Below are positions 38,850 through 42,871 of a stretch of DNA of 50,509 bases, in pieces; positions within the stretch are counted from its first letter, which is position 1, and each line of letters opens with the position of its first letter. The position numbers and the translations under genes were made by a program. Under the pieces are notes generated by a model that saw only the letters and a list, made by a program, of their open reading frames with translations, was not told the DNA's origin and did not search any database. This DNA comes from Escherichia phage PhiR11_1_star. Location of the stretch: sequence record PV340548.1; one strand, given 5' to 3'.

Positions 38850-38864
38850 ATTTGTGGAGTGAGT

Positions 38865-41219
38865 ATGGCAGTACAGATTTCAGGTGTGCTGAAAGATGGT
38901 GCGGGAAAACCAATACAGAACTGCACTATTCAACTGAAGGCAAAGCGTAACAGCACCACGGTACTGGTGAACACGGTGGCCTCTGAAAATCCGGATGAAG
39001 CCGGGCGTTACAGCATGGATGTTGAGTATGGCCAGTACAGCGTCACCCTGCTGGTTGAAGGTTTTCCGCCTTCACATGCCGGGACCATCACCGTGTATGA
39101 AGATTCTAAGCCGGGGACGCTGAATGATTTTCTCGGTGCCATGACGGAAGAGGATGTCATGCCGGAGGCATTACGCCGTTTTGAGGCTATGGTGGAAGAA
39201 GCAGCACGTAACGCTGAAGCTGCCTCTCAGAGCGCAGCGGCGGCAAAGAAATCCGAAACTGCAGCGGCATCATCGAAGAACGCGGCGAAAACCTCAGAAA
39301 CGAATGCAGCTAACAGCGCACAGGCGGCAGCGGCCTCGCAGACTGCATCGGCAAATTCCGCGACAGCAGCTAAAAAATCAGAAACCAACGCGAAAAACAG
39401 CGAGACAGCAGCAAAGACGAGCGAAACCAACGCAAAGTCCAGCCAGACGGCAGCGAAAACCAGCGAAACGAATGCTAAAGCCAGTGAAACTGCGGCAAAA
39501 AACAGCCAGGCTGCAGCAGCTGAAAGCGAGAGCGCAGCAGCCGGTTCTGCGACTTCAGCAGCTGGATCAGCAACTGCTGCGGCTAACAGCCAGAAAGCTG
39601 CGAAGACGAGTGAAACTAACGCAAAGTCCAGCCAGACGGCAGCGAAGACCAGCGAAACGAATGCCAAAGCCAGCGAAACTGCGGCAAAAAACAGTCAGGA
39701 TGCAGCGGCCCAAAGCGAGAGTGCCGCAGCTGGTTCTGCAAGTGCGGCAGCTAATAGCCAAAAAGCTGCAAAAACCAGTGAAACTAACGCAAAGACGAGT
39801 GAAACAAAAGCAGCAGCCAGCGAGATAGAAGCAACGTCAGCCGCAACAAGAGCAGAGAATGCAGCCCGGATTGCAGAAGATGCCGCTGATCCTGCTTCAG
39901 TCCCTCCGCTTCCTGATATCTGGCTACCCTTGAATGATTCTCTGGAAGCGATAACAGGGTATGCCCCGGGCTATAAAACAATAACCATCGGCAGTGATGA
40001 AATAACAATGCCTGTTAATGGCATATGCCAATTTAGCCGCGCTTCATCAGCAACGTATATTGATAAGTCCGGGCATATTACCGTGGCAGGGAATAACGTT
40101 CCTCGTTTTGAAAAATATGGTTTGCTGATAGAGAATCAGCGAACAAACATGTTCGTAAATAGTTTTAATCCTGATGCGTGGAATAAAAGCGGTGGTATAT
40201 CTGTAACATCATCAACAGATGAATTTGAGTTTAAATATGGACGTTTCACAGTAGGAAGTGAGATAGCAGGAACGACAACAGGGAGAAATATATGCACAGT
40301 TGCTGGTAATAAAGGCATAGATGTGACTGGCGATGATCAGTACAGTAAAGGTCCGTATGTTACCGCGTCGTTCAGGGTAAGAAGTGATCTCAATGTTCGC
40401 GCACGTATCCGTTTTGAACGGTATAACTCGGAAGGATACACTTTCCTTTGTGACGCCTATTTGTCATTACAGACTCATGAACTACAAATTACGGGTGGTA
40501 ATGCCCAGCTATTAACAGCAAACTTTGAAATCGACCCTGGTAGTGGATGGATATATTTTCAGGCAACACTGAAATGTCTGCCAGAATGGGGAATGGTTGG
40601 TACGCAGCTGCAAATTGCAGCCGACAGAGCAGTGGGGGCTTTTGCAACAGGTGACTGGATAGAAGTAACCACCCCGCAATTCGAGTATGGTGCTTGTGCA
40701 ACTTCCTTTATCATAACGACAACAGAGCCAGCGACTCGTGCATCAGATTTATGTAAATTTCCGCTGATGAAAAATATGTATACCATGCCTTTTACGTTCA
40801 TGGTGGAAGTCCATAAAAACTGGTTTATTTCTCATAATGCTGCACCGCGTGTCATTGATTCAGAAAATCACCAGTCCGGAGGCCCATTTATTATGGGGTT
40901 TGGTTCTTCTGGAACTATCAGTCAGGATGGTTATTCGTATTGCGATATAGGCGGGGCTAACCGGCGTGTATATGAGTCATGCGGAGTAAGAGATCTCGTT
41001 ATGGGATTCAGGGTTAAGGCTGACGGCATGACATGCTCATTTGCAAATAAGAATATAAGCACTGAAACCAAAACAGTATGGAAATATATTCGTGAAGCAG
41101 CCGTGATTCGTATCGGGGGGCAAACGACGACAGGATTACGACACCTTAATGGTCATATAAAAAACCTCCGTTTCTGGAACAGAGCATTGTCAGATACGCA
41201 GCTTAAGGAATACGTATAA
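38865..41219 (+). CDS. stf: side tail fibre protein Stf, with a divergent lectin-like C-terminal domain
   Basis: N-terminus MAVQISGVLKDGAGKPIQNCTIQLKAKRNSTTVLVNTVASENPDEAGRYSMDVEYGQYSV matches lambda Stf; long Ala/Ser/Thr-rich repeat region; C-terminus ends HIKNLRFWNRALSDTQLKEYV (LamG/ConA-like signature). Confidence 0.85.
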   Translation: MAVQISGVLKDGAGKPIQNCTIQLKAKRNSTTVLVNTVASENPDEAGRYSMDVEYGQYSVTLLVEGFPPSHAGTITVYEDSKPGTLNDFLGAMTEEDVMPEALRRFEAMVEEAARNAEAASQSAAAAKKSETAAASSKNAAKTSETNAANSAQAAAASQTASANSATAAKKSETNAKNSETAAKTSETNAKSSQTAAKTSETNAKASETAAKNSQAAAAESESAAAGSATSAAGSATAAANSQKAAKTSETNAKSSQTAAKTSETNAKASETAAKNSQDAAAQSESAAAGSASAAANSQKAAKTSETNAKTSETKAAASEIEATSAATRAENAARIAEDAADPASVPPLPDIWLPLNDSLEAITGYAPGYKTITIGSDEITMPVNGICQFSRASSATYIDKSGHITVAGNNVPRFEKYGLLIENQRTNMFVNSFNPDAWNKSGGISVTSSTDEFEFKYGRFTVGSEIAGTTTGRNICTVAGNKGIDVTGDDQYSKGPYVTASFRVRSDLNVRARIRFERYNSEGYTFLCDAYLSLQTHELQITGGNAQLLTANFEIDPGSGWIYFQATLKCLPEWGMVGTQLQIAADRAVGAFATGDWIEVTTPQFEYGACATSFIITTTEPATRASDLCKFPLMKNMYTMPFTFMVEVHKNWFISHNAAPRVIDSENHQSGGPFIMGFGSSGTISQDGYSYCDIGGANRRVYESCGVRDLVMGFRVKADGMTCSFANKNISTETKTVWKYIREAAVIRIGGQTTTGLRHLNGHIKNLRFWNRALSDTQLKEYV
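39230..39830. repeat. internal tandem protein-coding repeats in stf (two ~190-bp units encoding KTSETNAKSSQTAAKTSETNAKASETAAKNSQ...)
   Basis: Near-identical DNA units at about 39405-39595 and 39596-39785; they also generate spurious alternate-frame ORFs. Confidence 0.8.
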
Positions 41220-41488
41220 TGCGGGATATAACATTACGATTCGATAACAGAGAACAGTTTAACGCAATTGTATATGACAGTGGCCTGTTCAGTCTTGAAG
41301 AAGAAAATGGGGTTCTTGTTGATGTTATTGGCTGCATTATTGATTACGAGGAGCCAGAAAACGAAAGATGTACAGGCATTGATCGCGGTGGTTTTTTCGT
41401 AAACATGAGGATTGTTGATGGCAGTAAAAACATATCTTCTTTAATGCCTTTCATTACGACAGATCAGCATGTAAGGACATGGGCTTAA
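41219..41488 (+). CDS. hypothetical 89-aa protein in the tail-fibre module
   Basis: ORF start overlaps the stf stop; no recognisable motif. Confidence 0.5.
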   Translation: MRDITLRFDNREQFNAIVYDSGLFSLEEENGVLVDVIGCIIDYEEPENERCTGIDRGGFFVNMRIVDGSKNISSLMPFITTDQHVRTWA

Positions 41489-41500
41489 TGGAGTAAGACA

Positions 41501-42541
41501 ATGGTTACAAAAACAGTAATTCCTGATGACATCAAAACGCTAAAATCCGATGTTAGTAAACTAAAAACTGATCAAGGAAGCTATGCAACAAAATCATATG
41601 TAGACAATAAAACAACATGGAATAGTTATTGCAATGTAATCTATGATCAAAAGGCATTGCCGACCACTGGAACTATATTTAGCGGTAAGATTCACTTGTC
41701 AAATAAGACTGGTGAAACGGAAAACGCTTATAGTGATATATATACCAGAAAAAATATTGATGGTACTAAAGATACAATGACGAGGATCGTCACACATAAC
41801 GGGACAAAAGGTATCTTTTGGGACTTTAGTGATCTTTACGGAGGAACTTTAATTTTCCCTGGCACTGCTGGTTATTTGAAAATGGGTAAATGCCTCATGT
41901 CCTATGGGGATCGTGTAGATAATGCCCTGATTAAATTTGATTATACAGACACACTACAGATCAAATATGCTAATCATGGTTCGACCATGACACTAAACAC
42001 ACAGGGAACCGCTCACGCTGGCGTTACTGCTAAATTGTGGGGCAATTCTAGCCGTCCGGTTGTTTATGAAGTTGGTGTAGATGGTGGGGCTTTTATATTC
42101 TTCGGTCAAAAACAAACAGATGACACATATGCATTTGCTGTTAATGGTGCATGTCAAGCGACCGCATTTAACCAGACCTCTGACCGAGACCTGAAAGATA
42201 ATATTCAGGTGATTGATAATGCAACCAATCGCATCCGTAAGATGAATGGTTATACATACACGCTTAAAGAAAACGGGATGCCTTACGCTGGTGTTATCGC
42301 ACAGGAAGCCTTAGAAGCAATTCCAGAGTCCGTAGGCTCTACGATAAAATATAGGGACGGTGGTAGCGGATCTGAAGGCGAAGAAGGTGAACGGTATTAC
42401 ACTGTAGATTATTCTGGTGTTACTGGCTTGCTTGTTCAGGTAGCCAGAGAGTCAGACGACAGGATAACAGCACTGGAAGAAGAAAACGCAGAATTAAGAC
42501 AAAGATTATCTGCAATTGAGGCGGCGCTTGCGTCTAAATAA
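41501..42541 (+). CDS. tail fibre/spike-like protein with a C-terminal intramolecular-chaperone (peptidase S74-like) domain
   Basis: 346-aa ORF; C-terminal segment SDRDLKDNIQVIDNATNRIRKMNGYTYTLKENGMPYAGVIAQEALEAIPESV...LEEENAELRQRLSAIEA resembles the autocleaving chaperone domain of endosialidase-type fibres. Confidence 0.65.
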   Translation: MVTKTVIPDDIKTLKSDVSKLKTDQGSYATKSYVDNKTTWNSYCNVIYDQKALPTTGTIFSGKIHLSNKTGETENAYSDIYTRKNIDGTKDTMTRIVTHNGTKGIFWDFSDLYGGTLIFPGTAGYLKMGKCLMSYGDRVDNALIKFDYTDTLQIKYANHGSTMTLNTQGTAHAGVTAKLWGNSSRPVVYEVGVDGGAFIFFGQKQTDDTYAFAVNGACQATAFNQTSDRDLKDNIQVIDNATNRIRKMNGYTYTLKENGMPYAGVIAQEALEAIPESVGSTIKYRDGGSGSEGEEGERYYTVDYSGVTGLLVQVARESDDRITALEEENAELRQRLSAIEAALASK

Positions 42542-42568
42542 TATTAAGGGGCCGAGCGCCCCGTTTTA

Positions 42569-42871
42569 TTGGGTAGGATGAAAATGGATATAACACCTTT
42601 CCTTCATGCGCTTTGTGCTGTGGCTGCGCAGCTACTGATTGGTCTTTTTACCGGAAACTGGGCTTACGGGGCGATAGCCGGTTGTACGTTCTTCATTGCG
42701 CGTGAACACACCCAGGCAGAATATCGCTGGATTGAAATGTTCGGGCATGGCAAGCGTATGAATATGCCGTGGTGGGGCGGTTTTGATCCTCGTGCATGGG
42801 ATGTGGCTAGCCTGATGGATTTTGCTGTGCCGGTGGTGGCGTGTCTGCTGGTCTGGCTGTTGATCCGTTAA
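42569..42871 (+). CDS. hypothetical small inner-membrane protein
   Basis: 100-aa ORF with two hydrophobic segments (FLHALCAVAAQLLIGLF, FAVPVVACLLVWLLI). Confidence 0.5.
   Translation: MGRMKMDITPFLHALCAVAAQLLIGLFTGNWAYGAIAGCTFFIAREHTQAEYRWIEMFGHGKRMNMPWWGGFDPRAWDVASLMDFAVPVVACLLVWLLIR

Follow-up and report, generated by a model that had tools for sequence, protein, structure and literature searches.

A putative branched, cassette-exchanged side tail fibre encoded behind J in Escherichia phage PhiR11_1_star

In the Stf/Tfa system of Ur-lambda, the side tail fibre gene follows J (and lom) and specifies an N-terminal attachment domain and an Ala/Ser-rich repeat shaft, and the C-terminal tip of the lambda Stf is gp37/P2-H-like and depends on Tfa. 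Multi-protein lateral fibres, including a triad of a long fibre, a protein of ~90 aa and an S74-bearing fibre, have already been described in T5-like phages and in the BASEL collection. The T5-like phages AKFV33 (ORF137/136/135) and IrisVonRoten (Bas32; Gp22/23/24) carry this triad, as do the Queuovirinae VogelGryff, JenP1 and a metagenomic phage, the Drexlerviridae member swan01, and Tritos. The Stf homologue of AKFV33, ORF137, was found by MS as a full-length virion protein (PMC3326045), and AlphaFold-Multimer models of IrisVonRoten seat Gp24 on the proximal fibre Gp22, for which a 'galectin-like' C-terminal domain is predicted (PMC11990801). In DT57C (LtfA/LtfB) and phiEco32 (gp14/gp15), a second S74-bearing protein is likewise mounted via the first, and genetic evidence shows that LtfB of DT57C requires LtfA (PMC4728585). 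A similar concept is described for the KP32-type receptor-binding proteins of Klebsiella phages (PMC13352976), where RBP2 uses a conserved short N-terminal peptide for docking into the branching domain of RBP1; these are podovirus tailspikes, whereas the locus considered here encodes a siphovirus side fibre, and the likeness is conceptual and not drawn from sequence.

The window analysed here is a stretch of 50,509 nucleotides from Escherichia phage PhiR11_1_star (PV340548.1), which is 100% identical to Escherichia phage PhiR11_1. The side tail fibre encoded in its fibre region is rather probably modular and branched: a further tip would be docked on the Stf C-module/ORF89, and parts are exchanged as cassettes. 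This is no new kind of system: a swappable host-recognition kit is common to T5-like and other coliphages, and its occurrence here is real and not surprising. The features are as follows.

38825..38854, + strand: terminator-like hairpin and T-run in the J–stf gap (8-bp stem, 6 GC pairs)
38865..41219, + strand: stf, side tail fibre protein (phrog_1419 over its full length, GenBank annotation, RBS)
38865..39257, + strand: lambda-type tail-attachment domain of Stf, PF08400 (aa 3-133, E 2.4e-68)
39393..39812, + strand: Stf shaft repeat, a 189-bp (63-aa) unit present about twice, with 21-nt heptad sub-repeats
39894..40160, + strand: Stf linker, start of the portable C-module (PLPDIWLPLNDSL...), highly conserved with invariant alignment columns
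40161..40697, + strand: CBM4/22-like beta-jelly-roll of Stf (aa ~435-613), homologue of the RcGTA head-spike fibre
40656..41216, + strand: terminal LamG_3/ConA-like domain of Stf (last 187 aa)
41219..41488, + strand: ORF89, small protein that partners the Stf C-module (89 aa, phrog_1361 family)
41501..42541, + strand: second fibre of 346 aa, comprising a plug peptide at the N-terminus, the 226-aa mature part and the 120-aa S74 (phrog_4563)
41501..41545, + strand: conserved 15-aa N-peptide MVTKTVIPDDIKTLK of the second fibre, proposed docking plug, with invariant positions
42179..42538, + strand: S74 intramolecular chaperone domain, beginning at the predicted cleavage residue Ser227 (SDRDLK; Lys232)
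42548..42562, + strand: terminator-like, GC-rich hairpin that separates the second fibre from ORF100
42584..42871, + strand: ORF100, conserved two-TM membrane protein closing the module (phrog_1443, likely 95 aa)

As in other lambda-type loci, stf closes the tail operon, behind J (35391-38804). The 60 nt between the two genes contain only the terminator-like hairpin (38825-38844), which bears out the first-pass annotation in placing stf directly after J with no lom. The equivalent site in phage 21 carries a terminator annotation, and among relatives a lom cassette has been gained or lost just 3' of the hairpin, at ~38848-38852; the absence of lom is an indel unrelated to the fibre module. Translation of stf is assigned to ATG 38865, which has a GGAG RBS (784 aa), and the mechanically called ORF opens at GTG 38859 (786 aa).

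The N-terminus of Stf, previously described as lambda-like, scores 228.7 bits against PF08400 phage_tail_N (Pfam cutoff 26.6). It leads into an Ala/Ser/Thr/Lys-rich shaft in which TRF recovered the two tandem repeats of ~190 bp already noticed in the centre of the gene (period 189 bp, 1.8-2.2 copies, 80-89% match), and the Stf proteins of relatives differ in length by 7, 14 or 63 aa. A GC shift marks the linker that follows, inside which lies the left recombination breakpoint (~40014); this linker opens a portable C-module of ~440 aa and is a candidate docking region. Stf shares its position, attachment domain and repeat shaft with Ur-lambda, but differs in its CBM-like and LamG-like C-terminus, in the ORF89-type protein behind it and in the extra fibre. 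Across the phages with the triad, the N-terminus of the first fibre varies with tail type (PF08400 here and in the Queuovirinae, T5 LtfA/pb1 type in IrisVonRoten and AKFV33), while its C-module, the small protein and the 15-aa N-peptide of the second fibre stay constant. Gene order in AKFV33 and IrisVonRoten is identical to that of the window, and their C-modules are 34-51% identical to that of Stf over the full module.

The C-module contains two domains of lectin type. The central one matches NCBIfam NF048003 GTA_spike_fiber (E 1.7e-12, 48.2 bits, cutoff 36) and is homologous over ~250 aa to Rcc01080 of RcGTA (PDB 6TB9; phmmer E 1.4e-3), which binds capsular polysaccharide (PMC7296036, PMC10218006). 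Unlike a trimeric tail fibre, Rcc01080 is a monomeric head decoration held by an N-terminal Leu-Gly repeat, and residues 2-10 alone are resolved in PDB 6TB9. This domain, upstream of the LamG region, is a second lectin-like domain that the first-pass annotation had overlooked. The LamG/ConA-like signature claimed for the Stf C-terminus is real at the level of the family, where all 10 homologues of the terminal domain that were scanned match Laminin_G_3 (PF13385; best E 7.4e-10), and marginal in this copy, whose last 187 aa (E 5.7e-4, 20.5 bits) fall below the gathering cutoff of 27.6 bits and align, through the last ~48 residues, only to profile positions 104-150 of 151. The terminal domain matched no LamG structure in a profile search against the PDB, and the AF2 monomer model has a pLDDT of ~25-45 in the linker and LamG parts (~26 in the terminal LamG part, which is unusable). 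The domain search of the module found lectin-like domains, namely NF048003 and Laminin_G_3 at family level, together with PF13884 in the second fibre.

The 89-aa ORF that had been noted after Stf is present, and its product matches phrog_1361 (E 1.9e-30). The stf stop and the ORF89 start share a letter in TAATG, ORF89 directly adjoins Stf in 77 of the 78 related loci from IMG/VR, and 12 residues are invariant in a family alignment spanning four phage lineages. The ~90-aa proteins of AKFV33 and IrisVonRoten belong to the same family (28-32% identity), and a stop and start that overlap or abut at this point are a mark of their cassette type. Neither ORF89 nor ORF100 has any Pfam or NCBIfam match, no Tfa-type chaperone gene is recognised directly downstream of stf, and no protein of the module matched a Tfa-type family, such as PF02413, in the domain search. 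ORF89, and not the Stf C-module, could itself be the socket, as a small adaptor placed on Stf as a cap and accepting the N-peptide. Its invariant residues, its constant adjacency to and translational coupling with stf, and the annotation of IrisVonRoten gp23 as 'tail fiber protein' are in keeping with such a role. However, Stf and ORF89 persist without the third gene in phage 21 and in 5 of 62 loci, which makes the branch optional and means that ORF89 is not simply a branch adaptor; its type (89 aa versus 92-93 aa) moreover tracks the type of the Stf C-module and not that of the third gene, as expected of a Stf-specific chaperone. Structure and family searches returned no match for ORF89 that decides between socket and chaperone, and on the above evidence the adaptor role is somewhat unlikely.

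The second fibre gene is preceded by a separate RBS and opens with a start codon of its own. The first 15 residues of its product follow the pattern M-x-T-x-T-x-I-P-x-D-I-x-x-L-K, with M1, T3, T5, I7, P8, D10, I11, L14 and K15 invariant in an alignment of lambdoid, T5-like and Seuratvirus second-fibre proteins; 9 of 15 positions are thus fixed across families, whereas the whole proteins are 23-26% identical. Over its first 39 aa, the protein shares 87-89% identity with those of virulent JenP1 and ESCO3 (87% for the 351-aa third protein of JenP1). At the other end, the endosialidase-type chaperone domain reported earlier is supported by PF13884 Peptidase_S74 (aa 227-278, E 2.7e-13, 50.4 bits, cutoff 22) and by the S-D-x-x-x-K dyad (S227-D-R-D-L-K232), whose S227, D228 and K232 are invariant in the cross-family alignment and at least 90% conserved in another. 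The AF2 monomer model is poor (pLDDT 62) and shows a long C-terminal helix at 304-345. Between these ends, the mature half matches the distal ends of long fibres (positions 1001-1200 of 1210 in phrog_6578 and 1293-1566 of 1567 in phrog_5668) and is hypervariable, resembling a receptor-binding tip. The second fibres of AKFV33 and IrisVonRoten have the same N-peptide and S74 domain but are longer (557-574 aa), with a longer N-terminal segment and an extra Gp12-like domain (PMC11990801).

Two other roles for the 346-aa protein were weighed. It might act in trans as an assembly chaperone of Stf and stay outside the virion, a role suggested by the annotation of its VogelGryff and KurtStettler homologues (BASEL phages) as 'putative lateral tail fiber chaperone', by the mere ~98 aa ahead of S74 in the Drexlerviridae version, and by the module yielding no Tfa-type chaperone. 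S74 domains of characterised fibres are, however, intramolecular and cleaved off, and the dyad is conserved here; the mature half is homologous to long-fibre ends and varies as a tip would, one class of third gene consists of the N-peptide and a Gp34_trimer fibre body without S74, and Stf with ORF89 remains intact where the third gene is missing. A trans-acting role is accordingly very improbable. The Drexlerviridae mature third protein, which would have only ~98 aa, is also short for a receptor-binding tip, which counts against a branched fibre; the swan01 protein has 224 aa in all and a marginal S74 match.

Alternatively, the 346-aa protein could be an independent fibre fixed straight to the tail tip or baseplate and not to Stf, since it is a complete S74-type fibre with a separate RBS and start codon, and in DT57C weak densities close to the tip of the tail have been tentatively attributed to LtfB (PMC10713586). 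Against this, the domain search found no recognisable tail-attachment domain in it, the third gene, where present, always lies directly behind Stf and ORF89, and the identical N-peptide occurs in both T5 LtfC-collar and PF08400 systems, which have only the Stf C-module and ORF89 in common; direct fixation to the tail is quite unlikely. A second protein mounted via the first is instead proposed here, as in DT57C and phiEco32. The LtfA/LtfB docking family itself was considered and rejected: an alignment of N-termini shows no relation between MVTKTVIPDDIKTLK and the start of LtfB/gp15 (MSRPLMPKSG...), the LtfB/gp15-type docking segment of ~45 aa is absent from the second fibre, and BLASTP of gp14 and LtfA against Stf gave shaft-repeat similarity only, with no counterpart of the LtfA 223-471 / gp14 239-508 region. 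LtfA of DT57C also differs from Stf in carrying an S74 itself and in not being followed by a ~90-aa gene.

Exchange of the parts was followed in 80 viral loci from IMG/VR. Among the 62 loci scored for the third gene, 41 carry the 346-aa S74 type, 15 an S74 type of 227-234 aa and one the Gp34_trimer type, which keeps the N-peptide. These three unrelated classes of tip have only their first ~24-30 aa in common, and the third gene varies on near-identical Stf backgrounds (14, 9 and 2 loci). DNA identity is lost right after third-gene codons 15-20 and regained at ORF100, with breakpoints behind the N-peptide at 41544-41560. The first-pass reading of a glycan-targeting receptor-binding module swapped by recombination is supported: the breakpoints are observed, and glycan binding we infer.

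In the proposed branched fibre, a Stf trimer would be fixed to the lambda-type tail by its PF08400 N-terminus and extended by the heptad-repeat shaft, and the two beta-sandwich domains of the C-module (CBM4/22-like, then LamG_3-like) would most likely bind a surface polysaccharide, with O-antigen or capsule as candidate ligand. ORF89, whose translation is coupled to that of stf, would be a dedicated partner of the C-module and act either as a chaperone in assembly or as a small subunit of the structure. The 346-aa protein would trimerise with the aid of its own S74 and then cut it off at Ser227, and the 226-aa mature tip, incorporated into the virion via its N-peptide on the Stf C-module and/or ORF89, would add a second receptor specificity. 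Shaft, C-module with ORF89, and second-fibre body appear to have recombined independently at conserved linkers.

The recorded host of PhiR11_1 is K-12 MG1655, and K-12 laboratory strains express no O-antigen (PMC8594841), so that the fibre module may be dispensable there. The module could then be functionally irrelevant baggage, expressed but dispensable like the side fibres of laboratory lambda PaPa, and the side fibres of lambda and T5 are indeed non-essential on rough hosts (PMC4728585, PMC11990801). Yet all four ORFs (stf, ORF89, the 346-aa fibre and ORF100) are intact, at least 80% of the region is present in 75 of 5426 complete E. coli genomes, and the turnover of cassettes at conserved junctions implies that selection continues; together these render mere baggage improbable.

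Side fibres decide which O-antigen or capsule types can be reached and hence which E. coli lineages a temperate phage lysogenises and supplies with cargo, which in PhiR11_1_star includes a defence-like island just downstream of the fibre module. The defined junctions (shaft; lectin C-module with ORF89; plug peptide; tip) provide rules for predicting or engineering the host range of lambda vectors and help to annotate the 'hypothetical proteins' behind stf in E. coli prophages; the N-peptide plug is also used by virulent phages of other families. More tentatively, the N-peptide, Stf C-module and ORF89 might form a universal plug-and-socket of lambdoid prophages, T5-like phages, Queuovirinae and Drexlerviridae, in which at least three unrelated tip classes are interchangeable and ORF89 is an obligatory chaperone or socket subunit. 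Were this so, a lambda-like prophage could switch host range by swapping one cassette of ~0.7-1 kb between two conserved junctions, and ORF89 would be a so far unrecognised component of a cross-family system.

ORF100, which closes the module, agrees with the small membrane protein described earlier in having two strongly hydrophobic segments (aa ~8-30 and 79-100). Its likely start is ATG 42584 rather than TTG 42569. Unlike the window, the virulent phages VogelGryff, JenP1 and swan01 and the AKFV33 and IrisVonRoten loci carry no ORF100 homologue after the triad, and ORF100 lies downstream in 60 of the 62 related loci.

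The fibre module of PhiR11_1_star is a lambdoid representative of an already known cassette type, in an already deposited phage. Window positions 38700-43000 match the record PV340547.1 at 100% identity; this is Escherichia phage PhiR11_1, which is lambdoid (host per record, MG1655) and in whose annotation stf is named and the three following genes are 'hypothetical'. Of 5426 complete E. coli genomes, 75 carry 80% or more of the region, and all four module proteins have full-length matches to existing PHROGs. A literature search on PhiR11 returned sister phages used in passing only, and no paper describing the module. 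Compared with the deposited PhiR11_1 record (offset +41), the window has a further 1534 nt at its end, and positions 49815-50509 are an exact copy of positions 1-695 (695 nt); the duplicated ends and the overhang would fit an assembly that is circular or has overlapping ends.

The first-pass annotation had stf following J directly, with no lom gene, and this is the arrangement found: J (35391-38804, with the full gpJ Pfam set), 60 nt, and then the stf ATG at 38865 with a GGAG ribosome-binding site. The gap contains a terminator-like hairpin, and breakpoint comparison of relatives places the presence or absence of a lom cassette at ~38848-38852, directly 3′ of it. Among loci of the IMG/VR survey described below, lom lies upstream of stf in 43 of 55, and it is present in PhiR47_1, whose Stf is 96% identical. 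Since the same Stf type also occurs with lom, the missing gene was ruled out as a trait of the module, to which lom status is unrelated.

The lambda-like N-terminus of Stf was recovered (PF08400, E 2.4e-68), as were the proposed tandem ~190-bp repeats, which TRF resolves as a 189-bp unit in 1.8-2.2 copies at 39393-39812 (80-89% match), composed of 21-nt heptad sub-repeats. Stf length in close relatives (loci L016-L095) steps by 7, 14, and 63 aa (787, 794, 801; 794 vs 857), which fits a history in which heptads, and the 189-bp unit as a whole, were gained or lost; shaft length is therefore polymorphic. The portable C-terminal part (~440 aa, here the C-module) holds two lectin-type domains rather than one, a jelly-roll homologous to RcGTA Rcc01080, which binds capsule (PMC7296036, PMC10218006), and the proposed LamG/ConA-like end. 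The latter assignment is right at the family level because all 10 scanned homologues of the terminal domain match Laminin_G_3 (best E 7.4e-10); the match of the window protein's own last 187 aa is partial and sub-threshold (E 5.7e-4, 20.5 bits vs a cutoff of 27.6). An AF2 model of the C-terminal fragment is confident only at aa ~435-613, with the LamG part (pLDDT ~26) as good as unmodelled and the conserved linker likewise, a likely consequence of the shallow alignment (39 sequences, ~50% identity).

Virulent phages also have the C-module in their lateral tail fibres, at 34-54% identity and full coverage; in all of them the next gene encodes an ORF89-family protein of ~90 aa, and a second fibre gene comes after it.

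Three-gene cassettes in relatives of the window module (fibre 1; small protein; third protein)
IrisVonRoten gp22-23-24, T5-like: 796 aa; 92 aa; 574 aa
AKFV33 orf137-136-135, T5-like: 784 aa; 88 aa; 557 aa
VogelGryff gp22-23-24, Seuratvirus: 708 aa; 91 aa; 388 aa
JenP1, Nonagvirus: 703 aa; 92 aa; 351 aa
Metagenomic 59.6-kb contig, Queuovirinae-like: 702 aa; 92 aa; 348 aa
swan01, Drexlerviridae: 659 aa; 92 aa; 224 aa
Tritos, lambdoid: 790 aa; 93 aa; 346 aa

The window module is a member of this AKFV33/IrisVonRoten-type cassette and differs from the Ur-lambda Stf/Tfa arrangement in everything past the shaft. The N-terminus of fibre 1 varies with tail type and is PF08400 in the window and Queuovirinae and of the T5 LtfA type in IrisVonRoten and AKFV33 (51-56% identity to DT57C LtfA aa 1-200); the C-module and ORF89, like the beginning of the third protein, are constant across tail types. 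For the lateral fibres of these phages, a composition of '2 (or more) separate proteins' has been suggested (BASEL 2021, PMC8594841), and O-antigen binding has been proposed or shown (PMC8594841, PMC4728585). The Stf homologue IrisVonRoten Gp22 was independently described by the BASEL authors as having a C-terminal 'galectin-like domain' (PMC11990801), and the AKFV33 counterpart is a full-length virion protein (PMC3326045). In Tritos a PinR-type site-specific recombinase gene lies just 3′ of the fibre module on the opposite strand (L003 6737-7327); none is present in the window.

The 89-aa ORF reported after stf is present, with the stf stop and ORF89 start joined as TAATG. The survey scanned the flanks of 80 C-module loci from IMG/VR (29 near-identical, 51 at ~50% identity); of the 78 with room for an ORF89-family gene, 77 have one, its start lying at offset 0 or -3 relative to the stf stop codon. 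The family shows 28-32% identity between phages, with 12 invariant residues, and in the survey its length (89 vs 92-93 aa) follows the type of C-module, not that of the third gene. No match was found in Pfam, NCBIfam or PADLOC, and a profile search of PDB gave a best E of 0.07. An exhaustive search of 1.84 billion representatives returned six matches, and it offers no informative fusions because the longer ones are a frameshifted read-through and cadherin/Ig-repeat proteins. Phage 21 and 5 of 62 survey loci keep Stf and ORF89 and have no branch gene; the branch is therefore optional, and ORF89 belongs with Stf. ORF89 may assist or complete the C-module; that it is a socket subunit instead of a chaperone is possible, although doubtful. 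The strict pairing of C-module and ORF89, together with the junctions mapped below, appears to be undescribed in the searchable literature, as an incremental addition.

The 346-aa second fibre does carry the expected endosialidase-type chaperone (Peptidase_S74, E 2.7e-13, above cutoff), and Ser227 and Lys232 are conserved, from which we infer cleavage at Ser227 into a 226-aa mature part and a 120-aa chaperone. The domain also exceeds the Pfam cutoff in the third proteins of IrisVonRoten, AKFV33, VogelGryff, JenP1, and Tritos, and scores marginally in that of swan01. A fold search of PDB with an AF2 model (pLDDT 62) gave nothing below E 0.09 and is, as expected, uninformative because a monomer was modelled for an intertwined trimer. 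In the sister phage PhiR47_1 the annotation gives the second fibre (L011 5157-6197) a length of 294 aa, with a 37-aa ORF behind it. This protein has 66% identity to that of the window, nearly all of the first 35 aa being the same, and appears to be cut off within S74, perhaps through a frameshift.

An alignment of the third proteins of the window, Tritos, IrisVonRoten, AKFV33, and VogelGryff has nine invariant positions among its first 15 (M1, T3, T5, I7, P8, D10, I11, L14, K15), against an overall identity between families of 23-26%. Over its first 39 aa, the window protein has 87-89% identity with those of JenP1 and ESCO3 and ~55-60% with those of Drexlerviridae. The generality of this N-terminal plug peptide, which recurs with three or more classes of tip and in four lineages, likewise appears undescribed in the searchable literature, and is incremental. 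Because phages with differing fibre-attachment systems have this plug in common and share only the Stf C-module and ORF89 as partners for it, the second fibre probably docks on one of these as a branch, and direct attachment to the tail is unlikely. Some annotations name the protein a trans-acting chaperone, a role that we consider marginally less likely still. For the favoured branch, PF08400 would anchor Stf, which would present two lectin-like heads; the S74 domain would drive trimer folding of the 346-aa protein before its cleavage, and the N-terminal peptide would mount it on the constant part of Stf or on ORF89, adding a second specificity. Such an arrangement would work like the branched LtfA/LtfB fibre of DT57C, but the docking family differs: by alignment and BLASTP the second-fibre N-terminus is not the docking peptide of LtfB and phiEco32 gp15 (Golomidova 2016), and BLASTP with the DT57C and phiEco32 proteins found no counterpart in the window Stf of the gp14-like docking region of LtfA.

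Of the survey loci, 62 have 1.4 kb or more of downstream sequence. The third gene of 41 of these belongs to the 346-aa S74 type and that of another 15 to a 227-234-aa type, with S74 at aa 109-165 (E 6.6e-6); one locus has a 340-aa type that matches PF21446 Gp34_trimer (E 7.8e-28) and has no S74, and five lack the gene. Only the first ~24-30 aa are common to the classes. Even the near-identical Stf group is divided (14 loci with the 346-aa type, nine with the 227-234-aa type, two with none). Where the third gene of a relative differs, identity to the window is 96-98% from ~38764/38848 to 41544 or 41560, exactly codons 15-20 of the second fibre, and returns at 42567-42575, the start of ORF100, the next gene. 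Loci with no third gene (L018, L021) are deletion derivatives in which 41493 is joined to 42426, and the fibre gene survives as its final ~116 nt, 5 nt past ORF89. That the whole module is dispensable on laboratory hosts is improbable, if slightly less so than direct tail attachment. Tritos and L045 share 92% identity with the window to 40014 and 39805, respectively, then diverge across the C-module and ORF89, with similarity back at 41482; GC drops from ~0.54 to ~0.41 at ~40000. As judged from these breakpoints, therefore, shaft, C-module plus ORF89, and tip body are swapped independently at conserved linkers.

ORF100, the proposed small membrane protein, has two strongly hydrophobic segments and follows in 60 of 62 survey loci; a GC-rich hairpin lies 5′ of it in the window. 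Its 461 homologues are all 'hypothetical', match no Pfam domain, and retain ~60% identity across genera with no annotation anywhere. Two of them stand behind an Aeromonas P2/HP1-like prophage tail fibre gene (L009 6001-6300) and a Comamonas prophage J-like gene (L010 6001-6303). A holin was rejected, as the protein lacks a charged C-terminal tail and is encoded far from any lysis-cassette position; a part in receptor masking or superinfection exclusion is speculation. The fibre module is directly followed by a block of three genes with low GC (0.33-0.48), adjoined by an insertion sequence.

Features downstream of the fibre module
In 43117-47039, - strand: 271-aa protein, sub-threshold HEPN_RiboL-PSP match (E 7.6e-6)
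In 43117-47039, - strand: 374-aa protein, no family
In 43117-47039, - strand: 478-aa FRG-domain protein, PADLOC candidate defence family PDC-S15 (E 8e-99)
47014-48287, - strand: IS2 (InsC/InsD), annotated in PV340547.1

The three-gene block looks like a defence-type cargo island.
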